Under the pieces are notes generated by a model. That model saw only the letters and a list, made by a program, of their open reading frames with translations. It was not told where the DNA came from and made no database searches. A program made the position numbers and the translations under genes. DNA of 64,000 bases from assembly GCA_036657515.1 (NCBI GenBank), contig JAVXGI010000003.1, positions 45 through 64,044 of the forward strand, read 5' to 3'. Each line of letters opens with the position of its first letter. The first letter of the stretch is position 1. Below, one piece after another: positions 1 to 55,541 of the stretch. The stretch comes from Bacilli bacterium. GTDB lineage: Bacteria; Bacillota_I; Bacilli_A; RFN20; CAG-826.

Positions 1-157
1 AAACGAGTTAAGTGGTAACTCAATTATATAAGAGATACTTTTTTTATACATTGATTTTGTCTTACTAAACTTAAAAAAAGCTAAAGATAAATAAAATAAA
101 AATGCCCTTTTTTCTAAGAGAAGAAAAAAAGGCATTTAAATTAAGTTAGAATAAGAT

Positions 158-22454: not shown

Positions 22455-23134
22455 ACAATTACACTGCAGAACCTAACTATTTTTTGTGGAAAGGTCTTTT
22501 AAGTGAAATTAATAATAAATCATATTTTAAAGAACTTTTAAGTTTTCTTGAAAAGGAATATGCGGAAAAAACCATTTTTCCACCTTCTAAAGATCTCTTT
22601 AAAAGCTTTTTATTGTGCAAAGAAGAAAACTTAAAAGTTGTTATCATTGGTCAAGATCCGTATCACGAAATAAATCAAGCAAATGGGTTAGCTTTTTCCG
22701 TAAATAAAGGAATAAAATTACCTCCTAGCTTAAAAAATATCTATAAAGAAATTGAAAACGAATATAACGTAAAGACTAAAAATGATGGAGACTTAACTTA
22801 TCTTGCTAAACAAGGAGTTTTACTTTTAAATAAATATTTAAGTGTAGAAGAAGGAAAACCACTTAGTCATAAAAACAAATTATATGATGAATTTTTTAAA
22901 GATGTTATCAGCTATATTGAAAGTATTAATAAGCCAATTGTTTTTATGTTGTGGGGCGGAGAAGCTAAAAAAGTAAAACCATATATTGCTAATAAATTAC
23001 ATATTATTTTAGAAGCAAACCATCCTTCTCCATTAAGTGCAAATAGGGGTGGATGGTTTGACTCTAAAATATTTTTAAGATGTAACGAATATCTTAAAAA
23101 GTTTAATGTAGAAGAGATTGATTGGACGAAGTAA
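22451..23134 (+). CDS. ung: uracil-DNA glycosylase
   Basis: GQDPYH water-activating loop and HPSPLS motif. 227 aa. Confidence 0.85.
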   Translation: MNNYTAEPNYFLWKGLLSEINNKSYFKELLSFLEKEYAEKTIFPPSKDLFKSFLLCKEENLKVVIIGQDPYHEINQANGLAFSVNKGIKLPPSLKNIYKEIENEYNVKTKNDGDLTYLAKQGVLLLNKYLSVEEGKPLSHKNKLYDEFFKDVISYIESINKPIVFMLWGGEAKKVKPYIANKLHIILEANHPSPLSANRGGWFDSKIFLRCNEYLKKFNVEEIDWTK

Positions 23135-23147
23135 TAAGTGTAAGATA

Positions 23148-23230
23148 TATCCGGGTGCTGAAGTATATTCGGCTGAGATGATTGTAGTCAATCAAACCGT
23201 ACTTGATCTAGGTAATACTAGCGGAAGGAG
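23148..23230 (+). ncRNA. TPP (THI-box) riboswitch
   Basis: GGTGC ... CTGAGA ... ACC-N-TGATCTAGGTAATACTAGCGGAAGG matches the THI-box core elements. Lies directly upstream of a ThiT-like transporter. Confidence 0.8.
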
Positions 23231-23234
23231 AAAT

Positions 23235-24317
23235 ATGGAACAAAAAGTTATCAAGGAAAAAACTTTTACAGAGAAAATGGTTGCTGTAATAAGTGAAAAC
23301 AGGACCATTATTCTAGACGTAGTCGCATTAGTAGCAGGAGTTATAGGAATAATTCTATCTCTATTTGCTTTTGCTAAGATTAAAGATTTTGAAGGGACAA
23401 AGATTATAGTTACAGGAATAGAGGTATTCTTTGGAACTAGCAGTTTATTAGGATTTAATGTGATTGCATTTTTTATCTTCTTACTTCCTTTATTAGGATT
23501 AGTAAGTATTCCAATGTCACATTTCTTTAAACCAATTAAAGGCATGTCGGCTTTATTCTTACTTGCATCAGCTATTTTAATTATTATTTTACCATCAGTT
23601 TTAATTCAAGGAATTGACGGACCACGATTTGAGTATGTTAAGCTACAAGATTTTGCAGCAATTGCAAGCGCTCTTTATTTCTTATCAGGTATTGCATTGT
23701 TTATCTCTGATTATCAAAATGATAAATTCTCAATTTCTGACATTGCAGAAACTGCAATGTTAATTGCAATTGCCGTCGTATTAAATTATATAAAAGTTCC
23801 ACTTGGAGCAACGGGCGGATCAATTAACTTACAAATAGTACCACTTGTTATAATTGCATTACGTTATTCACCATCTAAAACATTTTTTGCATCAGGATTA
23901 TGTTATGGATTAATATCATGTATTCTTGATGGATATGGATTACATACCTTTCCATTTGAATATTTAATTGCATTTGGTTCAGTTGTTATTATTTCGTTTG
24001 TTAGAAAATACGTTATATCTAAAGGAAAACCAACTATTATTGGAGGAGCATTAATCCTATTCTTAGTAATGGTTGCTACTGGTATTAGATTCTTTGGCGC
24101 TTCATTTGATAGTGTAATATTCTATAACTATACTTGGACTGCTGCTTTTGCATATAACGCAATTTATATTTGGCCAACTGGAGCATTAACTGCAGTTGTT
24201 GCTGTTTTATTTTATATAAAACCTTTATTCTTTTTAAATAGATTATTCCCAACTACCGATATGAAGCGTGATTTAACTGAAAAAGTTGTTGTTGAAGAAA
24301 TCGCAGAAACAAAATAA
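23235..24317 (+). CDS. thiamine ECF-transporter substrate-binding (S) component ThiT-like, with N-terminal extra membrane domain
   Basis: C-terminal half matches the ThiT family pattern (AETAMLIAIAVVLNYI..LGATGGSINLQIVPLVIIALRYS). The N-terminal ~170 aa are additional TM helices. Start at ATG 23235 with RBS GGAAGGAG; the ORF track's upstream TTG start would run through the riboswitch. Confidence 0.65.
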   Translation: MEQKVIKEKTFTEKMVAVISENRTIILDVVALVAGVIGIILSLFAFAKIKDFEGTKIIVTGIEVFFGTSSLLGFNVIAFFIFLLPLLGLVSIPMSHFFKPIKGMSALFLLASAILIIILPSVLIQGIDGPRFEYVKLQDFAAIASALYFLSGIALFISDYQNDKFSISDIAETAMLIAIAVVLNYIKVPLGATGGSINLQIVPLVIIALRYSPSKTFFASGLCYGLISCILDGYGLHTFPFEYLIAFGSVVIISFVRKYVISKGKPTIIGGALILFLVMVATGIRFFGASFDSVIFYNYTWTAAFAYNAIYIWPTGALTAVVAVLFYIKPLFFLNRLFPTTDMKRDLTEKVVVEEIAETK

Positions 24318-39480: not shown

Positions 39481-40911
39481 ATGAATTTTGAAGCTGTTAT
39501 TGGTCTTGAAATACACGTTGAAACAAAATCTAAAACGAAGATGTTTTCAAGTGCTCCTAATGAATTTAGTAAAACTCCAAATACTAATGTTACATATTTA
39601 GATTTTGCTTTTCCTGGAACTTTACCAGTAGTAAATAAACAAGCTGTCATTAATGCTATTAGAGTGTGTTCAGCACTTCATATGAGTATTGATAGAGAGA
39701 TTTGGTTTGATAGAAAGAACTATTTTTATAGTGATCTACCAAAAGGATATCAAATTACTCAGCAATTTAGACCAATTGGAAAAGATGGATATGTTGATAT
39801 TAGAGTTAATAATAAGATTAAACGAATTGGAATAGAACGTGCTCATATGGAAGAAGATACTTGTAAACAGTTTCATATGAGAGATTATTCTTTGCTTGAT
39901 TATAATCGAGCTGGAGTTCCACTTTTAGAAATAGTTTCTCTTCCTGAAATTAAAAATGGTACCGAAGCCATGGAATACGTTAATGCAATTAGAAATATTG
40001 TTATTTATAGCGATGTATCTGATGGAAAAATGGAAGAAGGATCGCTTAGATGCGATGTTAACATTTCTCTTATGCCGTGTGGTGCTAAAAAATTTGGTAC
40101 TAAAGTTGAAATTAAGAATTTGAATAGTACTGCTAATATTGAAAAAGCAGTAGACTTTGAAATATTAAGACAGTCTAAATTACTTCTTAAAGGTTTATCC
40201 GTTGTTCAAGAAACAAGAAGATGGGATGAAACTAAAAAAGAAACAGTACTAATGAGACTTAAAACTGATGCTGTTGATTATAAATATTTTGTTGAACCTA
40301 ATATTGTTCCAATTAAACTTGATGAAAAGTTTATAAGTGAAGTAATTTCTACTTGTCCAGAACTTTTAGAAGCTAAAAGAAAAAGATATATCGAACAATT
40401 TGGTTTAAGCGAATATGATGCCGATGTTATTTTATTTTCAAAAGATAACGCACTTTATTTTGAAGAAATTTGCAAGTTTACAAAAGAATATAAACTTGCA
40501 GCTAACTGGTTAATCGGAGATATTCAATCCTATTTAAATAAGTCAGCAATTAGCATTAAAGAATTTGAAATTGCTCCAAGTTCAATTGCTTTACTTATAA
40601 ATAATATTGCGACGAATAAAATTTCATCAAAACAAGCTAAAGAAATATTTCTTAAAACACTTGAAAAAGAGGTTGTTCTTGAAGAAGCAATTGCACTTTG
40701 TGGTTCATCATTTATTTCAAATGATGATGAAATATTAAAATTAGTAAATACTACTCTTGATGAATTTCCACAATCAATTATTGATTATTTTGCTGGTAAG
40801 GATCGTTCGATCGGATTCCTTGTTGGACAAATTATGAAGAAAAGTCATGGAAAAGTAAATCCTAAGTTAACAAACGAAATTTTATTACGTGAAATAAATA
40901 AGAGAAAATAG
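39481..40911 (+). CDS. gatB: Asp/Glu-tRNA(Asn/Gln) amidotransferase subunit B
   Basis: N-terminal MNFEAVIGLEIHVE; 476 aa. Confidence 0.9.
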   Translation: MNFEAVIGLEIHVETKSKTKMFSSAPNEFSKTPNTNVTYLDFAFPGTLPVVNKQAVINAIRVCSALHMSIDREIWFDRKNYFYSDLPKGYQITQQFRPIGKDGYVDIRVNNKIKRIGIERAHMEEDTCKQFHMRDYSLLDYNRAGVPLLEIVSLPEIKNGTEAMEYVNAIRNIVIYSDVSDGKMEEGSLRCDVNISLMPCGAKKFGTKVEIKNLNSTANIEKAVDFEILRQSKLLLKGLSVVQETRRWDETKKETVLMRLKTDAVDYKYFVEPNIVPIKLDEKFISEVISTCPELLEAKRKRYIEQFGLSEYDADVILFSKDNALYFEEICKFTKEYKLAANWLIGDIQSYLNKSAISIKEFEIAPSSIALLINNIATNKISSKQAKEIFLKTLEKEVVLEEAIALCGSSFISNDDEILKLVNTTLDEFPQSIIDYFAGKDRSIGFLVGQIMKKSHGKVNPKLTNEILLREINKRK

Positions 40912-40968
40912 TGATTATTAGTTGCTGCTTACTGATACATAAAATTACCGGAAGCAAAAGGAGAAGAT

Positions 40969-43170
40969 ATGGGAAATGAGCCGTTTATTAAATTAGTAGA
41001 TGTATCTAAAATATATACATCGAAGGGCACTTCTTCTATTGGATTGCAAAATGTCAGTGCCGAATTCTCACTTGGAGAATTCGTAGCAATAACAGGAGAA
41101 TCTGGAAGTGGAAAATCCACTCTTTTAAATGTTATTGCTTGCCAAGATGTTTATGAAGAAGGTGAATTATTTATTAATGGAGAAGAAACTAGTGAAGTAA
41201 ATATTAGTAAACTAGATTCGTTTCGTAATAATAATATTTCATTTATATTTCAAGATTATAATATTGTTGAATCTTATAGCGTTCTTGAAAACGTCATGCT
41301 GCCATTGCTTGCACGTGGAATGAAAAAACGTGAAGCAAAAAAGCTAGCACTAGAAGTAATTGAAAAAGTAGGATTAAGTAGTGTTAAAGATTCTAGTAGT
41401 AGCAAGTTATCGGGTGGAGAAAAACAAAGAACAGTTATAGCAAGAGCTTTAATGAACAACACTCCAGTTTTAGCTTGTGATGAACCGACTGGAAATCTTG
41501 ATTCTAAAACTGGAGCAGAGATTGTTGCTTTATTAAAAGAAGTAAGTAAATATCGTTTAGTTTTATTTGTTACTCACGATTACGCCTCTCTTAAAGATAG
41601 TGCTACAAGACACATTGAACTTAAAGACGGACATATAGTTTTAGATGAACGTCTCAAAGAATTTGTTCCACTTGAGTATGTAAAACCGGCTGAAACTAAG
41701 ACAATTAGTACCTTTTCTGCTGTTTTAATTGGGTTAAAGAACTTTATTAAAACACCAAAGAAAAGTTTACTAATTAGTGCTATATCATTGGTTTCTGGTC
41801 TTATTATTTGTGGAGCAGGAATTACTGCTGTTAATATTGATGATGCTTATAAAAGCAGTCATAATATTTTTTTTAATGAACAAACTCAAAATAATATTGC
41901 AAATAGAGTTACGGTTAAACGTAAAAATATAGATGCAAAATCTCCTGAGGAAATACTTGGAAATAAATACGATTACTTTTTAGATAAAGGTTCTTTAACG
42001 GAAAATTTGTCTTTTAATCTTTCTTTTATAAATAGCAATGGAGTTTATGAAGTAAATCCAAATAATGTTACTTTAAATATTCTTTGTTCAGATGATAAAT
42101 TAATGATTGGAGAAAAAATTAAAGATGATCATGAAATTGCTATTTTTGCGAATGATATTAATCGTATAAACAAAGATTTTTTTAGCGATGATATAGGCAA
42201 AGAAATGAAAATATCTTTAATTGATCATAATACTGGTAAGAGTCAAGTTGAAGAAATTGTAAAACTTGTAGGTGTATACGCCTCGGAATATAAGCTACCT
42301 CCTGGATTCTCAATTGTTGGAAATCGAAAATTTGTAGAAAGATATTTAGAGAGAATTAAATATGAAAAATTAGAAGCTAAATATATTGGTCAAATTTTAG
42401 AAAATGGTGTTATGAAAGTTGATGGTACTCCTATTTTATTAGCAAATAATCCAATTGATTTTGAAACAAAATTTGAAAAAATTGTTTTATCTTCCATTTA
42501 TAAGGGAAAACCAATTGAATATTCAATAATGAATACAAATATAAAACTTAATGAAAACGATGTGATATATAGAGACGATCTTAAATTTGGATATTATCAT
42601 ACAAGAAGTTCATTTACTAAATTAGCAGAAAAGTATGATTTAAATACGACGATTATTTTAAATAATGTAAAAGATAAAGCCGGAGTTATGGGATCGTTTA
42701 ATAATAATGACTATATTATACTTAACAATGGAGAATATGTTGAAAAATTTGAACTTGCATCATTTATCGGTGTTGCATTATTAATGATTTTTGTCTTCCT
42801 TCCAATTGTTATATTTTCTTTCTATATTGCAATGTATCTTGAAACAGTGATTTATAAACGTAATTTAAAGGATTATTCAATTTTTAAAACCTGTGGATTC
42901 TCTGCTAATAAAGTTAGTTTGTTTCCTCTTTTTGAACAATTATTAACAATTATATGTTCGCTTTTAATTCTAACTATTTTAATTTCAATTGCACTTGCTT
43001 ATCCGACAATATTACCAAAGGAATATATCCTTATATTTAAGAACCCATTATTTTATAGTGTTACCTTTATATTTGGAATTTTATATTCGATTTGGTTCTC
43101 AATGAAATTAAGAAAAAAGATTGAGATAACTACCGTAAGCAAAGGGCTTAGAGAGGATGAATTGTTATGA
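40969..43170 (+). CDS. fused ABC transporter: MacB/LolD-type ATPase + FtsX-like permease with large extracytoplasmic domain
   Basis: Walker A GESGSGKST, signature LSGGEKQR, Walker B LACDEPTGNLD, then TM1, a ~330-aa extracellular domain, and three C-terminal TM helices. Confidence 0.75.
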   Translation: MGNEPFIKLVDVSKIYTSKGTSSIGLQNVSAEFSLGEFVAITGESGSGKSTLLNVIACQDVYEEGELFINGEETSEVNISKLDSFRNNNISFIFQDYNIVESYSVLENVMLPLLARGMKKREAKKLALEVIEKVGLSSVKDSSSSKLSGGEKQRTVIARALMNNTPVLACDEPTGNLDSKTGAEIVALLKEVSKYRLVLFVTHDYASLKDSATRHIELKDGHIVLDERLKEFVPLEYVKPAETKTISTFSAVLIGLKNFIKTPKKSLLISAISLVSGLIICGAGITAVNIDDAYKSSHNIFFNEQTQNNIANRVTVKRKNIDAKSPEEILGNKYDYFLDKGSLTENLSFNLSFINSNGVYEVNPNNVTLNILCSDDKLMIGEKIKDDHEIAIFANDINRINKDFFSDDIGKEMKISLIDHNTGKSQVEEIVKLVGVYASEYKLPPGFSIVGNRKFVERYLERIKYEKLEAKYIGQILENGVMKVDGTPILLANNPIDFETKFEKIVLSSIYKGKPIEYSIMNTNIKLNENDVIYRDDLKFGYYHTRSSFTKLAEKYDLNTTIILNNVKDKAGVMGSFNNNDYIILNNGEYVEKFELASFIGVALLMIFVFLPIVIFSFYIAMYLETVIYKRNLKDYSIFKTCGFSANKVSLFPLFEQLLTIICSLLILTILISIALAYPTILPKEYILIFKNPLFYSVTFIFGILYSIWFSMKLRKKIEITTVSKGLREDELL

Positions 43171-45905
43171 TTAAAATTAATAATTTGGATAAATATTTCT
43201 TTGAAGGAAAAAGAAATGAGATTCATGTAATAAACGATATCTCTCTTTCAATTGAAGGGAAAGGACTTTTGATGATTCTTGGACGTTCTGGAAGTGGAAA
43301 ATCAACATTACTTAATGTTATTGGTGGATTAGATTCTGCAAAAGGTAGTATAAGTTATGATGAGACAACATTTGATTCATATCAAATGGGTAAAATTGAT
43401 AAATTTAGATCGAAAAATATTGGCTATATTTTTCAAAACTATATGTTGCTTGACAATTTTACCGTTAAAGAAAACATCAATAATACACTTGTTCTTCTTG
43501 GAATGTGTGATGAAAAAGAAAGAAATAAACGTATTGATGAATCACTTAATGCAACTGGAATGTATCGTTATCGTAATAAGTTATGTAATGCACTTAGTGG
43601 TGGACAACGTCAAAGAGTTGGAATTGCTCGTGCATTAGCAAAAGATGCCGATATTTTAATTGCAGATGAACCAACTGGTAATCTTGATAGCAAGAATTCA
43701 ACAGAGATTTTAAAGATTATTAAAGAAATATCAAAAAATAAGTTAGTAATTATGGTCACACATAATGAAACATTAGCCAAACAATATGGAGATAGAATCA
43801 TAAATTTCCAAAATGGGCAAATTTTTTCTGATGTTGCAAATGTTGCTACTGGATCAAAAAGAATTATTAATGAAAACGATGTTTTTGTAAAAGATTTTAA
43901 AGCTGAAGAACATATAATTGATGACAAAGTTAAGATAAATGTTTTAAGTGATGACGTAAATAACGATGAATGTTTAAATATAAAGATCATTAAAAGAAAT
44001 GGTAAATATCTTCTTTTTGCTGATGAAAATGTTTCAATAAATCCTAATGTTAATTTATTAGACGAAAGCAAAGAAGAAGTAATGGAAACATTAGAAAAAG
44101 AGGATGCTGAATTATCATTCTTTGACTTATCTGATTTTGATAAAGATACACCAAAGAAAAATATATCTTTATTTAAATATATTTGGATAGAAATTAAGCA
44201 AATATTTACAAGAAAAAAGAAGTTTAGAAAAAGTTTTTTTAACTTAACTAATTTCGGTCTTGGAATTGCACTTGCATTTTTAACATCATATCTTTTTAAT
44301 TTTAGTGCAATTAATTTTTCAAGAGCCAAAATTACTAATTGCTTTCCTGCAACTTATGTAATGAATCCTGTTGGTAAACATGATGATCGCATTAACAATG
44401 AAAGAGCTCTTAAATATTTTAATTTTATGAACGATAAAGAATCTGGTATTGATTCATACGTGGCTCGAAATACTGAAATGATTTGTAAACAACGGTTTTC
44501 TTTATTTAATTCTTCGAGTAATACTTCTATAAGTGCTGCTTATATATCAAAAGATTCTTATAAAGGACCTGACAAGTTGATTGCTGGAGAATTTCCAAAA
44601 TCTCATTTTGAAGTTTGCATTGATAAATTAACTATAGATTATTTTTATGAAAATAACAAAACGTATAATATTACAATTAATGATTATATTGGCACTCGTA
44701 TAAATACTCGCAAAATTTTAAATGGTGAGAAATTAGTTTATACAATTGTTGGTGTTACTGATAACGGCTTTAATTCGTTAATGTTTGCACCAGAAGACTA
44801 TGATATTGCTGTTCAATCATTAACTAATTATTATGATGTTAAGTTAAATTATGCATATACTGTTGGATTTGATCCTTTGATTGAAAAAATTGATTTACTT
44901 GAAAATTCAGATCTAACCGAAGAAGATAAAAAAGATGCTATTACTAAGTACGATAGGTGCAATATTTATGTGAGTGAACAACTTTTAGCATTATTCCCAA
45001 ATTATTTTGATAGTAACTATTTTAATATTTGCAAAAAGTACAACGACCATTCAAATAAAGTATCAATGTATTTTTCTGATATCAAACAAGCAGAACGTCT
45101 ATTAAAATATAATGTTCAACATATTAATACAATTCCAATGCGTTTACAAAATGATAGTCTTGTAATTACCGAAGGAAGAAAAGCTCTAAGTGCGAACGAA
45201 ATAGTAGTATCCGATACTTTAACTGGAATTAGTTTATCTATGTTTAATGATTTATATAAAGTTGTTGGCAAATATAAAGCTAATTCATTACGTGATAGTT
45301 TTTATACCTATACTACATTATCTGGATTTCAATACTTTATATATAATTCGGGATTCAGCAGTTGCTTTAATAATTCTTGGCCTTTAAGTGAAGCAACATT
45401 ATTTACAAACAACCCTCAACAAGTAGAAAAATATTTACAAGAGAAACTTGGAAGTGATTTTAAATGTGGCAATGTTGGGACCTTTCTTACAAATTTTGAA
45501 ACTCAACGTAAAGTAGAATCACAAATAATAATACTTTCATTATTTATTAGTTTCTTAATAATACTAGTTGTTCTTGTAGTATTACATGGAAGAACTAAAT
45601 TAATTAGTAAACAATATTCGGTTGCGGTATACCGTTGTCTTGGTGTTAGCAAGACCTCAATTTCTAAACTGTTCCTAGCGGAAGGAATAGCAATATTTAC
45701 TATTTATACAACGCCTGGATTTATAGTTGGCTTATTAATAGCTAATATATTCAGAATCTTTGAAAATGCAACGCCACTTATATATTTAGGAATTTTTGGA
45801 TCATATGTACTTCTATTTTTAGTCTCAATAGGCGCACTTATTATTCCACTTATTTTACTCCTTAGAAAAACTCCTCATAAGATTGCTATTAAATATGACA
45901 TTTAA
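43167..45905 (+). CDS. second fused ABC ATPase + FtsX-like permease
   Basis: Walker A GRSGSGKST, signature LSGGQRQR, Walker B LIADEPTGNLD. Long extracytoplasmic region and C-terminal TM bundle. Overlaps the previous gene by 4 nt. Confidence 0.75.
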   Translation: MIKINNLDKYFFEGKRNEIHVINDISLSIEGKGLLMILGRSGSGKSTLLNVIGGLDSAKGSISYDETTFDSYQMGKIDKFRSKNIGYIFQNYMLLDNFTVKENINNTLVLLGMCDEKERNKRIDESLNATGMYRYRNKLCNALSGGQRQRVGIARALAKDADILIADEPTGNLDSKNSTEILKIIKEISKNKLVIMVTHNETLAKQYGDRIINFQNGQIFSDVANVATGSKRIINENDVFVKDFKAEEHIIDDKVKINVLSDDVNNDECLNIKIIKRNGKYLLFADENVSINPNVNLLDESKEEVMETLEKEDAELSFFDLSDFDKDTPKKNISLFKYIWIEIKQIFTRKKKFRKSFFNLTNFGLGIALAFLTSYLFNFSAINFSRAKITNCFPATYVMNPVGKHDDRINNERALKYFNFMNDKESGIDSYVARNTEMICKQRFSLFNSSSNTSISAAYISKDSYKGPDKLIAGEFPKSHFEVCIDKLTIDYFYENNKTYNITINDYIGTRINTRKILNGEKLVYTIVGVTDNGFNSLMFAPEDYDIAVQSLTNYYDVKLNYAYTVGFDPLIEKIDLLENSDLTEEDKKDAITKYDRCNIYVSEQLLALFPNYFDSNYFNICKKYNDHSNKVSMYFSDIKQAERLLKYNVQHINTIPMRLQNDSLVITEGRKALSANEIVVSDTLTGISLSMFNDLYKVVGKYKANSLRDSFYTYTTLSGFQYFIYNSGFSSCFNNSWPLSEATLFTNNPQQVEKYLQEKLGSDFKCGNVGTFLTNFETQRKVESQIIILSLFISFLIILVVLVVLHGRTKLISKQYSVAVYRCLGVSKTSISKLFLAEGIAIFTIYTTPGFIVGLLIANIFRIFENATPLIYLGIFGSYVLLFLVSIGALIIPLILLLRKTPHKIAIKYDI

Positions 45906-45961
45906 TTATTTGTTATAAAATAATGAAGTTTCGCAGTCTAAATTCTCAAACAAGATGAAAT

Positions 45962-45998
45962 AATCCAACTGTTTTCTTTTAAAAAACAGTTGGATTTT
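45962..45998. terminator. terminator hairpin between convergent genes
   Basis: ATCCAACTGTTTT-CTTT-TAAAAAACAGTTGGAT flanked by T-runs. Confidence 0.65.
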
Positions 45999-46010
45999 CT
46001 TTTACATAAA

Positions 46011-46033
46011 AAAATGGTTCCATTGGAACCATT
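46011..46033. repeat. perfect palindrome AATGGTTCCATTGGAACCATT
   Basis: Read directly. Second hairpin in the same intergenic region, flanked by 17-nt imperfect direct repeats (GTTTCGCAGTCTAAATT / GTTTTGCAGTCTAATTT). Confidence 0.5.
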
Positions 46034-46059
46034 GAGGTTTTGCAGTCTAATTTAAAAAA

Positions 46060-47710: not shown

Positions 47711-48724
47711 ATGAGAGTTTTAGTTACGGGTGGTACTGGATTTATTGGAAGTCATACTGTGGTTGAATTAATCAAAGAGGGTCACGAACCTATAATCGTT
47801 GATAATTTAATCAATTCATCAAAAGAAGTTTTAAATCGTATTAAGAAATTAACGGGTGTTAAACCTGTTTTTTACGAAGTTGATGTATGTAATAAAAGCA
47901 ATTTAGAGGAAGTATTTAAAGCAGAACATGTTGATGCTGTTATTCATTTTGCTGGATTAAAAGCAGTAGGTGAATCAGTTAGTAAACCTCTAGAATATTA
48001 TAGAAATAACATCGATTCTACTTTAACCCTTGTTGAAGTAATGAAAGAATTTGATGTTAAGAATCTTATTTTTTCAAGTAGTGCAACAGTTTATGGTACA
48101 CCAACTCGTGTTCCACTTTATGAAAAAGATCCAGTTGGAATTGCAACAAATCCATATGGTGAAACCAAGATTATGATCGAGCGTATCTTAACTGATTACG
48201 CATATGTTGATAAAACAATGAATATTATATTGTTAAGATACGCTAATCCAATTGGAGCACATCCAAGTGGATTGATGGGTGAAGATCCACAAGGCATTCC
48301 TAATAATTTAATGCCATATATTACACAAGTCGCTGTTGGTAAATTAAAGAATTTATTTGTCTATGGCGATGATTATGCAACCGAAGACGGAACCGGCGTC
48401 CGAGATTATATACACGTTGTAGATCTTGCTACTGGTCACGTTGCCGCTTTAAAGATTATTGATACATGTGGATTACGTGTTTATAATCTCGGGACAGGAA
48501 AAGGAACTAGTGTTCTTGAACTTGTAAATGCTTTTAAGAAAGTTAATAAAATTGAGATTCCATATAAAATCGTTGATAGAAGAGCAGGAGATATTGCTTC
48601 ATCTTATTTAAATTGTGATTTAGCTAAGGCTGAATTAAATTGGACTTCTAAATTAACAATTGAAGATTGTTGTAAAGATGCTTGGAATTGGCAGTCTCAT
48701 AATCCAACAGGTTATAAGAAATAA
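47711..48724 (+). CDS. galE: UDP-glucose 4-epimerase
   Basis: GGTGFIGSH Rossmann motif, SSSATVYG, YxxxK (YGETK). 337 aa. Confidence 0.85.
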   Translation: MRVLVTGGTGFIGSHTVVELIKEGHEPIIVDNLINSSKEVLNRIKKLTGVKPVFYEVDVCNKSNLEEVFKAEHVDAVIHFAGLKAVGESVSKPLEYYRNNIDSTLTLVEVMKEFDVKNLIFSSSATVYGTPTRVPLYEKDPVGIATNPYGETKIMIERILTDYAYVDKTMNIILLRYANPIGAHPSGLMGEDPQGIPNNLMPYITQVAVGKLKNLFVYGDDYATEDGTGVRDYIHVVDLATGHVAALKIIDTCGLRVYNLGTGKGTSVLELVNAFKKVNKIEIPYKIVDRRAGDIASSYLNCDLAKAELNWTSKLTIEDCCKDAWNWQSHNPTGYKK

Positions 48725-48728
48725 AAAG

Positions 48729-49199
48729 ATGAAGAAAATGATTTTATTAAGCGCCGTTCCTGGTGCTGGAAAGTCAACTTGGGCAGAAAAATATAAAAAA
48801 AATCACCTAAATACATTCATTGTATCAAGTGATGAGATAAGGAAAGAACTTGGTGGATCTTATAAATATTTTGCAGAAGAAGAAAAAGTATGGAAGCTTT
48901 TTATTGAACGTGCAAATTCATATTTAAATTTTCCACTAGATAATTTAACTGTTATTTTAGATTCTACACTCATGAATGATTATTATCGTGAATATTACTT
49001 AAAAAAGACATCAGGTTTTGATTTTCATTCACTTGTTTTTATTGATGTTCCTTTTGATGTTGCTAAAGAAAGAAACGTAGAACGTATAGAAGATAAGGTT
49101 GTTCCAGAAGAAGTTTTAATAAAAATGTATCACGATTTTGAGCGACCAAGCGACAAAGTTATTTCTTTATTTGATTCTTATCAAATAATTAAAATATAA
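48729..49199 (+). CDS. P-loop (AAA_33-like) ATP-binding protein / predicted kinase
   Basis: Walker A AVPGAGKST near the N-terminus, 156 aa. Start placed at ATG 48729, not the overlapping upstream start in the ORF track. Confidence 0.55.
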   Translation: MKKMILLSAVPGAGKSTWAEKYKKNHLNTFIVSSDEIRKELGGSYKYFAEEEKVWKLFIERANSYLNFPLDNLTVILDSTLMNDYYREYYLKKTSGFDFHSLVFIDVPFDVAKERNVERIEDKVVPEEVLIKMYHDFERPSDKVISLFDSYQIIKI

Positions 49200-49203
49200 C
49201 TAT

Positions 49204-49278
49204 TGCCCTGTGGGCAAGCGGTAAGCCAGGTGGCTCTGAACCACCTATTCCCAGGTTCGAATCCTGGCAGGGCAGCCA
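49204..49278 (+). tRNA. tRNA-Gln (anticodon CTG), U1:A72
   Basis: Acceptor TGCCCTG/CAGGGCA, anticodon stem GGTGG/CCACC with loop CTCTGAA, T-arm GGTTCGAATCC, encoded CCA. Confidence 0.7.
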
Positions 49279-49548
49279 TTATATGACACATGAACAATAC
49301 TAGTAATTAGTATTGTTTTTTTGTATTTTAAGGCATTTTTAATAGATTAACGGATATTTTTATGTATTGGTTAATCAGTTAACGTTAAGGGCGTATCAAT
49401 TTGAACCCTAAAACGAAATTATTAGATGAATGTACAAAATTATCGTTAAATTATTGGAAAACGTTAAAAGATTGAAAATAAGACATCTTCTCTATTTGGT
49501 AAGTATAGATTTTATGATAAAATATGTTTAGAGAAATGAAGTGAAAAG

Positions 49549-50559
49549 ATGATAAATACAAATGAAAAGAAAGAATTAAGTACGTTAAGTAGAAGTGAGA
49601 TTATTCATAATAACTTCTTTAATGAATTAAAAAAGCAAGGAATTACAAATGCTCAATATGCTAAAGACAATAATTTGGATAAAACTGTTTTATCGAAGTG
49701 GAAGAATATGACTACTATTATGTCTACAGAACAAGTTTATCAAGCGGCTGAATATTTGCATATTACTGTTAATAATTTATTCTATTCAACAGCAGAGAAA
49801 AAGGAAATAATGGTTCTAAATAATGATTCTGATTATATTCCCATCAAAGCACAACAAACGCTTGAAATAAAAATGTATGAAGAATCATTTAAGCATCCCT
49901 TCGACTTACTTGGATTAATTTTATTTGTCTTTGTTTTATTTACATCTATTTCCTTTTTCGCAAGTAAATCATCAGGATTTTGGATGTTTCTATTAATAGG
50001 TATTCCTATGGGTGGTTATACTTACTATAAAGAACAATTTGGGCATAAAAAGACTTATATTGTAGATTATTTAGATGATATCTATTACAAAATTGATAAG
50101 CCTAAAAATCAATATTTCATAATTAATTTAATCTTACATATTGTTTCATTATTAAGTGTTATTACTTCATTTGTATTTTTACTTCAAAGAGTTTATCCAA
50201 CTGAAGATAATCTAGTAACAATGATAATATTCCTATTATTAGGTATGGCTGTGTATGCTATTGTAAATTTCTTTACTCTATTTACTCACCAATTATATTT
50301 AAAAGAAGAAATATATGATAATGAAATAATGCCTCATACAAGCTCAATGGTTAATCTTTATATATCATTATTATTGCTAGCGATTGGTATTTGCTTTTTG
50401 TATCAGTACTTTGTTTACTATTGGTATGTTGTAGCATTTTTATTTTTATCTTCGGGTTTTTCTTTGATTGAATATTTACTATTGTCAAAAAAATATAGTG
50501 AATATAAACTAGTATATAAGGAGCATGATAAAGAGATTCAAGAATTGTTCCCTAATTAA
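49549..50559 (+). CDS. XRE-family HTH domain fused to multi-TM membrane domain
   Basis: N-terminal ~80 aa resemble an HTH (QGITNAQYAKDNNLDKTVLSKWKN). Followed by about 6 hydrophobic helices. Confidence 0.5.
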   Translation: MINTNEKKELSTLSRSEIIHNNFFNELKKQGITNAQYAKDNNLDKTVLSKWKNMTTIMSTEQVYQAAEYLHITVNNLFYSTAEKKEIMVLNNDSDYIPIKAQQTLEIKMYEESFKHPFDLLGLILFVFVLFTSISFFASKSSGFWMFLLIGIPMGGYTYYKEQFGHKKTYIVDYLDDIYYKIDKPKNQYFIINLILHIVSLLSVITSFVFLLQRVYPTEDNLVTMIIFLLLGMAVYAIVNFFTLFTHQLYLKEEIYDNEIMPHTSSMVNLYISLLLLAIGICFLYQYFVYYWYVVAFLFLSSGFSLIEYLLLSKKYSEYKLVYKEHDKEIQELFPN

Positions 50560-50730
50560 TAGTTGCAAATATTGCAACTTCGCCTCTATTTAGTTGCAGT
50601 ATCTGCAACCTACCTAGATTAGAAACCTACTTTATTATAAATTAGACTTAGCAAGTAAATCTTGTTATTGCAGATGAAGAAGTGCAGTGCACGCATCATT
50701 AATTTATGCAAGGAAAGTAGGTGGAAAGAT

Positions 50731-51078
50731 ATGGGATTATTTAGTTTTATTAATGACAAAATTCATACTAATTGCAAGAAGAGCAAAGATACTTCTTACC
50801 CTAATAAGTCTTATAAAGATGGAAAATATAGAGTTGGTGACCATGCTGTTACGCGAATGAATCAAAGACAAATAACAAAAGGTGAGTTACATGTAAATTT
50901 GCATACTAAACCTATAAAAATTACTTCAATAAAACATACTGAAGATGGGCCTTCTTATGAAAGATATAGTAAGAATAAGATTAACTCAAGAATCAACCCG
51001 GAAACAGATAATGTTAATACTGTTAGCAGATTTCATACAAGCAAGTATAATAAAATTATGAAAGGAAAGAAAAAATAA
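50731..51078 (+). CDS. DUF4258-like (RelE/BECR-fold toxin-like) small basic protein
   Basis: The HAVTRMNQRQITKGEL motif matches the H-A-x-x-R-M-x-x-R-x-I-[ST]-x-x-E pattern of DUF4258. RBS AGGTGG precedes ATG 50731; the ORF track extends it to 50662. Confidence 0.45.
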   Translation: MGLFSFINDKIHTNCKKSKDTSYPNKSYKDGKYRVGDHAVTRMNQRQITKGELHVNLHTKPIKITSIKHTEDGPSYERYSKNKINSRINPETDNVNTVSRFHTSKYNKIMKGKKK

Positions 51079-51320
51079 TGAAAAGATATAGTGAAAAAGT
51101 CGATTTATTTCTAACATCAATTGTCTTACCAAAAATGAAGTTGACGGAATATAATTATGACAATATAGGTGATATTGTTGATTATATGTTTTCAGAAATA
51201 GAAGGACCACTTTGTGATGCTGAAGAGAATGGAAGAATATTATCAAACGAAGATAAAGAGCTTTTAAATATAGTTACTACATCTATCACAGAGATAACAA
51301 CAAGAGACGATTGGGAATAG
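51078..51320 (+). CDS. small acidic protein, possible antitoxin/immunity partner
   Basis: 80 aa, strongly acidic. Start overlaps the stop of the previous gene (TAATG). Confidence 0.35.
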   Translation: MKRYSEKVDLFLTSIVLPKMKLTEYNYDNIGDIVDYMFSEIEGPLCDAEENGRILSNEDKELLNIVTTSITEITTRDDWE

Positions 51321-51329
51321 AATTATGGA

Positions 51330-52356
51330 TTAAATTTCTAATCTTATACTAGTAACATTCTTAATATGAAATATCGCATATCCATCTTTAGTGATGACTA
51401 TCTTACTAATTAAGTGATGGAAGAGTATTTCATCAAATTCAATAGGAGGAGTATCTAACTTCTTGATTTCATCAATAAACTTGGTGATTTCAATATTTTG
51501 GATTCTCCTTTTTTCGTTTGTTTCAATGATTGAATTGCATTTACTTTCAATGTTTTTATATCTTGATACAAGCTTATCATATTCAGCTAAGTAGGAATCA
51601 CTACTTTCTTTAGCACCGTATTCCACATGACGGTTGATTAGTTCTGATACTGTCTCTAATTCTCTTTTTAAATCGTTTAACGCTTCTTAATTGGTAGGTG
51701 TAAATAATTTATCCTTAACAAGCTCAAAGTCGTTTATAAGTGAAGTTTTGGCCTTAAACACTTGATTAAAGACATCAATGAACATTTCTTTTATTCTCTT
51801 ATCATCAATATGAGGAGTGGAGCAAAAGTGTTCTTTATTCTTGTATTTGTTATTACATTGGCAGACTAATTTACGACCTTTATCATTACTGTGCCATACT
51901 TTGAGTCCATAAGCACTTCCACATTCTTCACAAAATATTCTAGAGCAAAGTATTGATGATTTATGTGATTTGGATTTTGTTTCGTTTCTTATGTTTCTTT
52001 CTATTTGTACTTGTTCCCATTCATATGGATCAATAATTGCGGGGTGACTTTCTTCAACATAATATTGAGGGATTTCTCCTTCATTCTTTTTAAATGTTTT
52101 AGTTAGAAAATCCACTGAATAATTGTTTTGAAGAAGTGCGGATCCTTTATATTTTTCATTAGACAAGATTGAATCAATCGTGGAGTAGAACCATTTTGTT
52201 TTACCTCCAGGTGCTTTTACTCCATCACTTGTAAGAATATCTGCAATATGAGATTGGGATTTTCCTTCAAGAAATAGGGAATAGATTCTTTTAACGATAA
52301 TAGCTTCTTCAGGAATAATAACTACATTGCTATTTTCATCTTTCTTATAACCTAAA
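51330..52356 (-). pseudogene. large serine recombinase remnant (5'-truncated, frameshifted)
   Basis: The minus-strand frame encodes a Recombinase domain (EEAIIVKRIYSLFLEGKSQSHIADIL..GVKAPGGKTKWFYSTIDSIL), a Zn-ribbon (CEECG ... CQC ... C) and a coiled-coil C-terminus. There is no resolvase catalytic domain upstream, and a frame break lies at 51627-51686. Confidence 0.6.
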
Positions 52357-52553
52357 AATTTAACTTAATTAAATTATTAACTTCAATAAATAGAAAGCTT
52401 TGAGAAATATAAGTATCTCTGTACAATATCAAATGATGTGAGACAAAATCGATGTATTAAAAAATAGCTTATAGATAATTGAGTTAGCACTTAATTATCT
52501 TTTTATTTAATTTTAGGCTTTTTTAGGCTAAAATATAAAAAAGGAGTTATTAT

Positions 52554-53456
52554 ATGATTGAAAAATTTTCTTTTAAGAATTCTTATGGAGAAGAACTAAA
52601 AGGTTCTAAATGGTTGCTAGAAAAAGCTGTTGCTAATGTTATTTTAATTACTGGATTATGTGAATACAGTCAAAGATATGAACGTTTTGCTACATTTTTA
52701 AATAGTAAAATGATGAATGTTTATTGTCTTGATCATCATGGGCAAGGAGAAAATGTTAAGGACGAAAAAGAGCTAGGTACTGCTCCAAAAGATTATTTCT
52801 ATAAAATGACTGATACTATTTTTGAATTAGAACTAGAACTTGAAAAAAATAGTAAACTTCCTGTTTATTTAGTAGGACATTCAATGGGTTCGTTTATTCT
52901 TCAAGAATTAATTCAACGTCATCCAAATTGTTCCAAAAAGATTGTTTTAATCGGAACAAGTGGACCGATGTTTATTTCAAAACCTGGATATCTTATTTTA
53001 AAGATGTTAACTACAAAGAAAAACTTTGATAAGCCATCTAAGTTTGCTCATAAATTATCAATTGGACCTTATGAAAAAAGTGTTAAAGGTAGTAAATATC
53101 CTTGTGAATGGATCTCATATAACGAAGAAAACTCAACTAAATATCATCATGATAAAAAATGTAATTATATTAGGTCGTGGGGTGCTCAATTAGGATTAGT
53201 TGATGGAGTAGCTCATCTTCATCAAAAGAAAAAAATGGCTAATATCGCAAAAGATGTTAAAATCCTTATTGTTAGTGGACAAGACGATCCTGTTTCTTCT
53301 AATTGTAAAACAATTACTCCACTTGTTAAGTTATATAATAAAGTAGGAGTAAAAAATGTTGGTGTAATAATTTATGATCATATGCGTCATGAAATATTAA
53401 ACGAAGACAAACATAATAAAGTCGAAAACGATATCTATAATTTCTTAATTCAATAA
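52554..53456 (+). CDS. alpha/beta hydrolase (lysophospholipase / monoacylglycerol-lipase-like)
   Basis: HGxGE (HHGQGEN), nucleophile elbow GHSMGS, C-terminal His. 300 aa. Confidence 0.7.
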   Translation: MIEKFSFKNSYGEELKGSKWLLEKAVANVILITGLCEYSQRYERFATFLNSKMMNVYCLDHHGQGENVKDEKELGTAPKDYFYKMTDTIFELELELEKNSKLPVYLVGHSMGSFILQELIQRHPNCSKKIVLIGTSGPMFISKPGYLILKMLTTKKNFDKPSKFAHKLSIGPYEKSVKGSKYPCEWISYNEENSTKYHHDKKCNYIRSWGAQLGLVDGVAHLHQKKKMANIAKDVKILIVSGQDDPVSSNCKTITPLVKLYNKVGVKNVGVIIYDHMRHEILNEDKHNKVENDIYNFLIQ

Positions 53457-53458
53457 AA

Positions 53459-53495
53459 AAACTTCCGGATTTTGTTCCGGAAGTTTTATTTTTGC
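53459..53495. terminator. bidirectional terminator
   Basis: AACTTCCGGA-TTTTGTT-CCGGAAGTT with A-run and T-run flanks. Confidence 0.7.
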
Positions 53496-53499
53496 CTTC

Positions 53500-53673
53500 T
53501 TATTTATTCTTTTTGTTACATTCAAATGCTGAACGAACTGAGGAAACTGAGGCATTATTGCTTAATATACTTGAGTTAGCAAGGAAGGCACCGTAAGCAA
53601 ATAATGGACTGTTACCTAAATAACTCTCTGATTGTTCATCATCGTAGTCATTGTTTTCGTAAAATTTAATCAT
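53500..53673 (-). CDS. unannotated 57-aa small protein (not in the ORF track)
   Basis: Minus-strand ORF MIKFYENNDYDDEQSESYLGNSPLFAYGAFLANSSILSNNASVSSVRSAFECNKKNK, with a strong RBS (AAGGGGGTT, 9 nt before the ATG) and ending at the terminator. Confidence 0.5.
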   Translation of the reverse strand: MIKFYENNDYDDEQSESYLGNSPLFAYGAFLANSSILSNNASVSSVRSAFECNKKNK

Positions 53674-53799
53674 ATTATTAACCCCCTTGAATTAATGGTT
53701 CTTTTGGAACCACTTATAGTATAACTAGTGTAAATATGGGTACAATAGTGTAAACGCTTACTGTAACCGTTTACATATTTAACTATAAATTTTATTTAA

Positions 53800-53884
53800 A
53801 TTTGCTATAATAAATAGGCTTTATTAATAAGTTTAACTAGGTTTACTTCCTTGTTAACTGCCTATTGTAGAACAAGGAGAATAA
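53800..53884 (+). promoter_or_regulatory. extended -10 promoter (TGCTATAAT) and ~65-nt leader with SD-sequestering hairpin upstream of queT; candidate preQ1-responsive element
   Basis: TCCTTGTT (53848-53855) pairs with AACAAGGA (53871-53878), which overlaps the AAGGAG SD. The downstream gene is a QueT-type transporter, which often carries a preQ1 riboswitch. Confidence 0.4.

Positions 53885-55541
<1,657 letters not shown>

Follow-up and report, generated by a model that had tools for sequence, protein, structure and literature searches.

A decayed integrative island after tRNA-Gln(CTG) in a Bacilli metagenome-assembled genome, its serine recombinase family and a putative toxin–immunity module

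We analyzed a 64,000-nucleotide stretch of DNA (the window; about 28% GC) from a Bacilli bacterium, comprising positions 45 to 64,044 of the forward strand of contig JAVXGI010000003.1 (assembly GCA_036657515.1). The segment at window positions ~49279–52518, between a tRNA-Gln(CTG) gene and an α/β hydrolase gene, is, with a probability that we put at about 80%, the immobile left-end stump of an integrative island that entered exactly after the CCA of the tRNA gene and is one of a family whose mobility depends on large serine recombinases, in most cases encoded as a tandem pair. The stump is probably of the kind represented by the staphylococcal cassette chromosome (SCC) and the ssrA islands, and its sequence suggests a toxin–immunity module that is probably still functional. 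As an object, the window copy falls into a familiar category, the decayed integrated element, and is ordinary; its added value is the island family that it reveals and an uncharacterized three-gene toxin module. The window is 99.9% identical to contig JAVXHM010000002.1 of a metagenome-assembled genome (MAG; GCA_036656875.1, "Bacilli bacterium"), and a second MAG also has this locus.

The boundaries of the island are set by an empty site. Through homologs of the hydrolase we found a syntenic relative (loci L088–L091; hydrolase 64% identical, DNA 70–75% identical to the window) with the gene order DegV-DUF1836-GalE-kinase-tRNA-Gln(CTG)-hydrolase-QueT-Tgt-QueA-QueH, in which the stretch from DegV to the S10 operon is arranged as in the window and only 112 bp separate tRNA-Gln(CTG) from the hydrolase. 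DNA homology between the window and L088 (blastn) ends at 49281 and resumes at 52519, which places the island at ~49279–52518 (~3.24 kb) with its start at most 3 nt from the encoded CCA. The chromosomal side of the left junction, which would be the B arm of attL, is tRNA-Gln(CTG) itself (49204–49278, plus strand; predicted by ARAGORN, Rfam 61 bits; CCA encoded), and the same tRNA stands at the empty site of L088. On the right, the hydrolase (52554–53456, plus strand; Hydrolase_4, 1.6e-33) is the first core gene, lies outside the island, and is syntenic in L088–L091. In more distant Bacilli MAGs (GalE at most 66% identical), GalE is followed directly by the hydrolase, with no tRNA-Gln beside GalE. 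A scan of JGI metagenomes with the hydrolase returned nothing relevant. The sequence-only reading from which we started had proposed a decayed mobile element in this segment, with housekeeping genes resuming at the hydrolase. The empty site, together with a recombinase gene that lacks its catalytic domain and carries a nonsense codon (see below), bears out the first proposal, and the synteny of the hydrolase as core DNA bears out the second. The empty site next to tRNA-Gln that it had advised looking for is thus present in L088–L091; the flanking direct repeats that it had also advised looking for were not found around the window island.

The opposite polarity would make the segment ancestral, with L088 having lost it by deletion and the recombinase fragment being an old, fixed pseudogene unrelated to the tRNA. 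In favor of this account, a single empty-site lineage was recovered, and it is fairly distant. We nevertheless consider it extremely unlikely, because the more distant relatives also lack the segment, its left edge is, to the nucleotide, that of other island copies, a further genome has the same backbone after another tRNA, with higher similarity than the core genes show, and part of the segment varies in presence at the strain level and so is not fixed. A gene order common to all relatives was not seen among those compared.

The left end of the island is the best defined part of it. At the left junction, CCA|TTATATGACA (49276–49290, plus strand), homology to the empty site ends and homology to other island copies begins: blastn matches start at window positions 49271–49277 for L001, L094, and L004. 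L001 is a 3.6-kb contig of a related MAG whose recombinase remnant is 88% identical to that of the window (synonymous sites of that recombinase differ at 43%); L094 carries the island at another tRNA gene; and L004 has intact recombinase genes. In the junction alignment, CATTA is invariant in six family loci and reads CCA|TTA at tRNA and tmRNA genes (hereafter tDNA); L102 has the same motif. Directly after the tRNA, the island brings a hairpin with a T-run that resembles an intrinsic terminator (49292–49331, plus strand; predicted fold –12.3 kcal/mol, z –3.3). Equivalent hairpins are found in L094, L004, L100, and L101, where the stem sequences differ and yet always fold (–11.7 to –14.9 kcal/mol, z –3 to –5). 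The hairpin lies within a conserved noncoding block of the island backbone (49279–49488, plus strand), which also contains TTAACG (49347–49352), the palindrome TTAACGTTAA (49379–49388), and two CGTTAA(A) boxes (49444–49449 and 49462–49467). An nhmmer profile of the block matched solely at the junctions of the window, L087 (a MAG of the same species), L001, L004/L005, and L094 (E 1e-45 to 1e-58); identity of the block to the window is 90% in L001, ~75% in L094, and 73% in L004. Both CGTTAAA boxes, 18–19 bp apart, are present at five of the six family loci; in L094 a deletion has removed the second. The hairpin and the pair of boxes are likewise shared by L102. The boxes are retained even where no cargo lies between them and the recombinase gene, which argues that they are cis-sites of the backbone and not cargo promoters. 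Matches to promoter and terminator consensus sequences across the island were at chance level, and a scan of viral contigs with the junction motif gave nothing or chance matches in coding DNA. A run of three to four GTGAC(A) repeats lies ~60–110 bp beyond the stop of the second recombinase gene, between that gene and the CGTTAAA boxes, as CCCCCACGTGACACGTGACAAACGTGA(C/T)AG in L101 and L102 and in a variant form with four copies in L100; the window showed no such run.

Comparison of the copies shows that this left end is joined to different genes. In L094, the CCA of tRNA-Thr(TGT), part of an Ile-Val-Thr tRNA cluster, is followed immediately by the whole window island (block, three cargo genes, and the last 200 bp of the recombinase gene), which is ~83% identical to that of the window, while rpsJ and the tRNA cluster are just 74% identical. 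In both L100 and L102, a tmRNA gene faces the recombinase gene with its 3' CCA end, ~300 bp beyond the recombinase stop, and L101 has the same arrangement with tRNA-Thr(CGT). Wherever the chromosomal junction is readable (n = 5), the island starts right after CCA (CCA|TTA), at tRNA-Gln in the window, at tRNA-Thr(TGT), at tRNA-Thr(CGT), and at two tmRNAs; the five junctions that abut chromosomal DNA are thus all tDNA 3' ends. The island ends of L101 and L102 are almost identical although their targets differ, and the chromosomal arms share nothing beyond the features common to tRNA-like 3' ends: T-loop, acceptor strand, and CCA. From these junction sequences, the tRNA adjacency appears to be a target preference of the serine recombinase family and not the usual signature of a tyrosine integrase. 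The window has its own tRNA Ile-Val-Thr(TGT) cluster (1920–2198), the unoccupied counterpart of the site in L094.

A more conventional history would have a tyrosine integrase, since lost, place the island at the tRNA, with the serine recombinase remnant coming from a second, nested element. This, too, we hold to be extremely improbable. Neither the window nor the relatives contain a tyrosine recombinase or a displaced tRNA fragment; for tRNA-Gln, k-mers of at least 12 nt did not recur elsewhere in window 48000–54000, in L001, or in L004. In the three intact relatives with a readable end, the gene nearest the tDNA, behind the same junction motif, is a serine recombinase gene, and an island with a CcrB-like serine recombinase specific to the tmRNA gene is already on record (PMC3146451).

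The right-hand junction is less informative than the left. The DNA from the truncated recombinase gene to the promoter region of the hydrolase (52367–52518) has no homology to L088, does not significantly resemble the flanks of L001, L004, or L094, and contains no recognizable attR. Candidates for an attR or P-arm obtained by comparing the right end of the window with those three flanks scored no better than shuffles, and a shared arm containing TGTAC was dropped. This DNA also holds a sequence of ~58 bp (52438–52494), just upstream of the hydrolase promoter, that is ~84% identical to the reverse complement of window 8–65 and missing from the empty site in L088; a small repeat dispersed among intergenic regions and a regulatory site common to both places are possible explanations.

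The gene that identifies the island is the remnant of the second, CcrB-sized gene of a large serine recombinase pair (rec2; 51330–52366, minus strand). It retains the recombinase domain (PF07508, E 2.4e-4), the zinc ribbon (Zn_ribbon_recom, PF13408, E 7e-9), the coiled coil, and the C terminus; the N-terminal resolvase domain with the serine nucleophile (PF00239, ~184 codons), which is present in relatives, is absent, as is everything upstream. The window gene is therefore the remnant of a large serine recombinase and not a functional member. It aligns to approximately residues 184–527 of the intact 527-amino acid protein P0001 with 66% identity (342 residues aligned to intact homologs, E 1e-141), and its DNA (51330–52361) is 71% identical to the intact rec2 of L004. 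Many other intact proteins of 520–530 amino acids match at 40–50% identity, and serine integrases of plasmids and of gut-Firmicutes prophages at ~40%. The sequence-only reading had correctly recognized a minus-strand large serine recombinase without its catalytic N-terminal domain, and had also placed a frameshift at 51627–51686. We found none: translation from 52400 to 51327 gives a single frame throughout the remnant (52366 to 51330), interrupted by one in-frame TAA (51687–51689, minus strand; ...FTPTN*EALNDL...) at a codon that is CAA (Gln) in L001. The supposed gap is merely the distance from the TAA to the next possible start codon in the list of open reading frames (ORFs).

Other copies carry other lesions. 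L087, 98–99% identical to the window, lacks window 51542–52419 (878 bp, most of the remnant); L087 is MAG data, in which the deletion junction is clean and the sole N-run of the contig lies elsewhere. An immunity gene that seemed to be missing from L087 was rejected as a mutation, being a 10-N scaffold gap. The remnant in L001 is truncated 38 bp further in, against a nonhomologous flank, and has a 1-nt deletion; L094 keeps just the last 200 bp of rec2. Truncation and nonsense codon in the window, the deletion in L087, and the different lesions of the other lineages together indicate that decay is ongoing. Between the window and L001 remnants, 146 sites differ, distributed over codon positions as 30/24/92, and the ratio of nonsynonymous to synonymous rates (dN/dS) is 0.12 over the 197-codon intact part of the ORF; this third-position bias indicates that most of the divergence accrued while the gene was functional. 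We read the inactivations from these sequences as independent and fairly recent across lineages. Similarity of the DNA beyond the truncation points of the window and L001 was not significant and was discarded. Two independent deletion end points lie at most 12 bp apart (region 51522–51541), at or next to the palindrome TTCAATGATTGAA (51522–51534): that of L087 follows 51541 and that of L094 follows 51529.

The same substitution pattern could instead be taken to mean that the fragment without a catalytic domain was kept for a function of its own, for example as a repressor or as a partner of or decoy against recombinases that enter the cell, and became defective only recently. The dN/dS of 0.12 and the codon-position bias would fit such selection, as would the fact that the window and L001 copies carry one disabling lesion each besides truncation, at truncation points 38 bp apart. 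Against it, four lineages have four lesions (nonsense codon, frameshift, 878-bp deletion, and reduction to 200 bp), the flanks at the two truncation points are nonhomologous, which fits independent recent truncations of functional genes, and the truncated 5' end shows no evident start codon or promoter. We judge this account very unlikely. We also considered whether resolvase-less recombinase ORFs in the database form a functional class and rejected this: they mostly begin at an internal Met of the conserved motif IMSS(L/I)AQEESRSIS, and so look like gene-calling products of broken genes or contig ends.

The nature of the lost part can be gauged from intact relatives. The closest intact recombinases (45–66% identity to the remnant) are usually the second gene of a tandem pair of large serine recombinases with the sizes of CcrA and CcrB (rec1 ~440 amino acids, rec2 ~520 amino acids). 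Such pairs are found in L004/L005 (P0001; overlapping genes, 437 + 527 amino acids), L100 (447 + 520), L101 (443 + 522), and L103 (447 + 524); L102 has a single recombinase gene (516 amino acids), and the window only the 3' part of rec2. The rec1 proteins of the relatives (437–447 amino acids) carry Recombinase and Zn-ribbon domains. Beside the recombinases, L100, L101, L102, and L103 have an HTH_17 gene of the excisionase type (TIGR01764, 1.3e-9) and a DUF3987 protein of the primase/helicase type (754–757 amino acids); L100 further has BREX (bacteriophage exclusion) and L101 a type I restriction-modification (R-M) system. In L004, the order is block, three cargo genes, rec2, and rec1, which is the architecture of the window with different cargo. 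The best NCBIfam model for both rec1 and rec2 is CcrB (117–156 bits), and the CcrA model gives 66–76 bits; these scores are far below the equivalog cut-offs (700 and 900 bits for CcrA and CcrB), so the recombinases of the relatives are not Ccr orthologs and are Ccr-like in size and arrangement. Directly outside the left end of the island in L004, beside the intact recombinase pair, lies a 157-bp tandem duplication full of GGTGTACGCA-type iterons (L004 12394–12682), which might be an origin-like or attP-side feature.

These neighborhoods also bear on whether the stump derives from an ordinary temperate phage with a serine integrase, in which case the toxin module would be a prophage moron beside the attachment site. 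Many prophage records from gut Firmicutes have at their ends integrases to which the remnant is ~40% identical along its whole length; several of these records contain two to three such genes, and the fold predicted for the toxin (see below) matches C-terminal domains of phage proteins. The closest relatives, however, sit with HTH_17, DUF3987, BREX, or type I R-M genes, and no capsid, tail, or lysis genes were found in the 10–12 kb fetched around their recombinases. When the island DNA was compared with phage and plasmid collections, the recombinase part alone matched, and the membrane protein and the toxin of the cargo gave nothing or chance matches against viral contigs. A phage origin is therefore unlikely in our view, and we favor a nonviral cassette island.

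The nearest described systems are of two kinds. In the first, the ssrA-specific islands of Dehalococcoides, attL is at the tmRNA 3' end, the CcrB-like DsiB is adjacent to it, and a small second serine recombinase is also encoded (DsiB/DsiA; McMurdie et al. 2011, PMC3146451). As in those islands, the first gene in from the left junction, at the 3' end of a tRNA-like gene (tmRNA in L100 and L102), encodes a CcrB-like recombinase (~520–540 amino acids) on the reverse strand, with a second serine recombinase gene beside it and variable cargo; the window keeps this geometry, but with tRNA-Gln as the target and three cargo genes in between. Unlike in Dehalococcoides, the partner is a full large serine recombinase (437–447 amino acids) and not a PinR-like protein of ~200 amino acids without a DNA-binding domain, the targets include the ordinary tRNA genes Gln-CTG, Thr-TGT, and Thr-CGT, no tDNA direct repeat of ~20 bp was found in the window island, the host is an uncultured low-GC Bacilli lineage, and the window copy is just a stump. 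In the second, the SCC and Enterococcus cassette chromosome (ECC) elements, a ccrA/ccrB pair lies at the 3' end of rlmH (orfX) (PMC6222049). Our family resembles SCCmec and ECC in having two adjacent large serine recombinase genes of CcrA/CcrB-like size with CcrB as the best NCBIfam model, in lying at the extreme 3' end of a conserved gene that is not destroyed, and, in the relatives, in a primase/helicase-type gene beside the recombinases and cassette-like accessory cargo. It differs from SCC in its target (a tDNA 3' end and not rlmH), in model scores of 66–156 bits against cut-offs of 700–900, and in the absence of flanking direct repeats. Islander-type islands of tyrosine integrases (PMC4383910) share the location at tDNA 3' ends and a tDNA that stays functional after insertion; by contrast, our island ORFs contain no tyrosine integrase domain, no displaced tDNA fragment was found, and the junction lies after CCA and not inside the gene. 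In its decay, with recombination functions lost by deletion and point mutation and some cargo intact, the stump does not differ in principle from decayed ("grounded") prophages and decayed integrative mobilizable elements (PMC6379469; PMC5357655). Serine integrases of streptococcal mobilizable elements were found in surveys inside protein-coding genes only (PMC5357655). Our literature search found no description of tRNA-targeting serine integrases, which is not proof of absence.

On this basis we propose a course of events. For the two recombinases, rec1 and rec2, one half of attB would be provided by the end of tRNA-like genes that comprises T-arm, acceptor, and CCA, with crossover at or next to the CA of CCA, such that the tDNA stays whole and the island hairpin becomes its new terminator. 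A later deletion would have removed rec1, the catalytic half of rec2, the replication and excision genes, and attR, fixing the stump in place; by analogy with the relatives, the lost part may have included an excisionase-like HTH_17 gene, a DUF3987 primase/helicase, and further cargo. In what remains, a membrane-anchored protein with an Xre-type helix-turn-helix (HTH) domain would control the promoter of the toxin pair through two palindromes, and the module may have outlived its vehicle as an addiction, competition, or defense function.

The cargo between the left-end block and the remnant consists of three plus-strand genes, in agreement with the HTH-membrane protein and toxin-like/acidic pair that had been noted after tRNA-Gln(CTG): ORFs, domains, and isoelectric points (pI) all correspond. 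The second gene (50731–51078) encodes a basic protein of 115 amino acids (pI 10.0) that is predicted to be an RNase toxin of the BECR type (colicin D/CdiA-CT/DUF4258-like), and the third (51078–51320) an acidic protein of 80 amino acids (pI 4.25) that is a candidate immunity protein or antitoxin. The start codon of the third gene overlaps the stop of the toxin gene by 1 nt (TAATG). Database homologs of the 115-amino acid protein number 14 (58–99% identity, all 112–134 amino acids) and have 29 invariant positions, among them four His (H11, H37, H53, and H57) and two Arg (R45 and R77); no match was found in Pfam (E up to 10), PHROG, or PADLOC. For its AlphaFold2 (AF2) model (predicted local distance difference test score, pLDDT, 91.3), the sole Foldseek matches in the PDB with E <0.01 were the CdiA-CT tRNase of Escherichia coli NC101 (5i4r/5i4q; 5i4r E 3.6e-3, prob 1.0), and BFVD gave the C terminus of phage Gp35 (5.9e-7), colicin D (1.8e-3), and DUF4258 (9.5e-3). 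These structural matches point to a BECR-type RNase-like fold without membership in a sequence family. From the model, we infer that the 115-amino acid protein is an RNase toxin neutralized by the overlapping acidic protein; what is observed of the pair is its gene order, the 1-nt overlap, opposite charge, and co-conservation. In common with BECR-fold RNase toxins (CdiA-CT NC101, colicin D, DUF4258), it has the predicted fold, small size and basic charge, conserved His and Arg, an overlapping downstream acidic partner, and a pair that diverges faster than its flanks. It differs from them in standing alone, with no delivery domain, no signal sequence noted, and no sequence-family membership, and the locus differs from contact-dependent inhibition (CDI) and colicin loci in its link to a membrane-anchored Xre-HTH gene. 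Nor is the module a type II toxin–antitoxin system in the classical sense of a DNA-binding antitoxin, usually upstream and autoregulating: the acidic partner has no detectable DNA-binding domain and lies downstream of the toxin, and a separate HTH-membrane gene lies upstream.

The module recurs beyond this island. The trio or the pair is found between unrelated core genes in L092, L094, and L096, in L094 as island cargo, and the acidic gene is always directly downstream of the toxin homolog in these loci. On the chromosome of L096, parC and a sigma-factor gene flank the trio (48/70/61% identity); in L092, the toxin–acidic pair (65/62% identity) lies beside a different, divergently transcribed gene. 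Relative to homologs, dN/dS is 0.13–0.28 for the three cargo genes (0.13–0.27 for the acidic gene), with dS near saturation in the distant pairs; the cargo is intact and, by these comparisons, under purifying selection. The intact genes, their dN/dS, and the recurrence of the module elsewhere lend weight to the earlier suggestion that the element may retain regulatory or addiction functions; as we propose, addiction, competition, or defense exerted by the pair of RNase toxin and acidic partner may be the reason that the trio persists. Identity between the window and L094 is 90–91% over the HTH gene and the intergenic region and 86.5% over the rec2 tail, but 70% for the toxin and 60% for its partner, a mosaic between island copies that is typical of toxin–immunity exchange. 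L001 (940–1443 and 2654–3446) carries an EndoU_bacteria toxin (2.6e-12) with a small partner at the equivalent position and, by the recombinase remnant, a stand-alone ThsB TIR gene (PADLOC 1.7e-57); no ThsA was seen on this 3.6-kb contig. The slot therefore holds interchangeable toxin and defense cassettes. The gene after the block in L001 resembles the 329-amino acid gene beside the toxin pair in L092 (31% identity, E 6e-12).

The first cargo gene (49549–50559; dN/dS 0.19–0.28) encodes a 336-amino acid membrane protein with an N-terminal Xre-type HTH, a candidate regulator or sensor. The HTH match of the single sequence is weak (HTH_19, E 0.007), and 34 of 50 family members match HTH_19, HTH_26, or HTH_3 (best 7e-10); the family is coherent, with 94 representatives that are nearly all ~330 amino acids long. 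In the AF2 model (pLDDT 92), the N terminus matches the HTH domains of SinR, ImmR, and DdrO (template modeling score, TM, 0.76–0.84, target-normalized), on which residues ~15–90 superpose at 1.2–1.8 Å as a five-helix, HTH_3-like domain. The protein thus has a predicted Xre/Cro-type DNA-binding domain, followed by five hydrophobic stretches; the membrane part of the model has no solved structural counterpart. Between this gene and the toxin gene lie two perfect 17-bp palindromes, GTTGCA-N5-TGCAAC (50562–50578 and 50593–50609, together 50562–50609), which are 31 bp apart and resemble operators. With at most one mismatch, the motif occurs three times in the window (the two perfect copies and a one-mismatch site at 43833) against 0.12 expected. 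The palindromes are kept in L094, imperfect in L096, and absent in L092, which is without the HTH-membrane gene. In the HTH-membrane gene of L094, 1 nt is deleted and translation meets a premature TAA near codon 25 (L094 6840–6900), so the regulator of that copy is probably dead; its toxin pair is intact.

Several observations count against the picture of a tDNA-targeted island stump that carries a regulated toxin module. The empty-site relative is just 70–75% identical at the DNA level, the right boundary is fixed only within ~150 bp, and the window shows no identifiable attR, direct repeat, or right end. In two loci the conserved left end adjoins DNA other than a tDNA, namely the 157-bp iteron-like tandem duplication in L004 and the ThsB gene in L001; these may be unintegrated forms, tandem arrays, or secondary sites. 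The case for tDNA targeting rests on five junctions from metagenome assemblies. The toxin call depends on a predicted fold whose similarity to solved structures is modest (TM 0.46–0.57) and for which there is no family-level sequence match, and the link between regulator and operator is drawn from position and co-occurrence in three loci.

For this genome, the practical outcome is an annotation: a dead island stump with one pseudogene and three accessory genes. It is possible, at somewhat short of an even chance, that the remnant opens a view on an undescribed class of SCC-like islands in uncultured Bacilli that shuttle BREX, type I R-M, ThsB, EndoU, and the new module of a membrane-anchored Xre regulator controlling a BECR-type RNase toxin and its immunity protein; the large serine recombinases of these islands would accept, as a flexible attachment site, the T-arm/acceptor/CCA end that is universal to tRNA and tmRNA genes. 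A flexible, tRNA-like attachment site, if real, would explain why closely related elements lie at different tDNAs. To our knowledge, the textbook rule is that tyrosine integrases alone target tRNA genes, and a flexible site for serine recombinases would run against it. A tDNA-targeting family would extend the tmRNA-specific case known in Dehalococcoides. The CCA|TTA junction, the backbone block, and the intact rec1/rec2 pairs provide leads for serine integrases that naturally target tRNA or tmRNA 3' ends; because no bacterium lacks such ends and insertion leaves them intact, the enzymes are attractive as integration tools. The toxin–immunity module, compact, recurrent, and with a membrane-anchored regulator, is directly testable for toxicity, immunity, and phage defense.

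Other features of the window lie outside the island. An AAA_33 kinase gene (48729–49199) lies between galE and tRNA-Gln, with 4 bp from the end of galE to its start and 4 bp from its end to the tRNA, and matches polynucleotide-kinase/PSTK-like models (PHROG polynucleotide kinase, 9e-21; PSTK, 9e-13); kinase gene and tRNA-Gln are kept together in L088, and both are absent in the distant Bacilli MAGs where galE abuts the hydrolase gene. A second insertion/deletion difference from L088 involves two large ABC-ATPase genes (733 and 912 amino acids, 40969–45905; region 40861–46054) between gatB and degV, which are directly adjacent in L088. Finally, a thiamine pyrophosphate (TPP) riboswitch (23141–23247; 59.7 bits, above the gathering score) lies upstream of the ORF region at 23118–24317.

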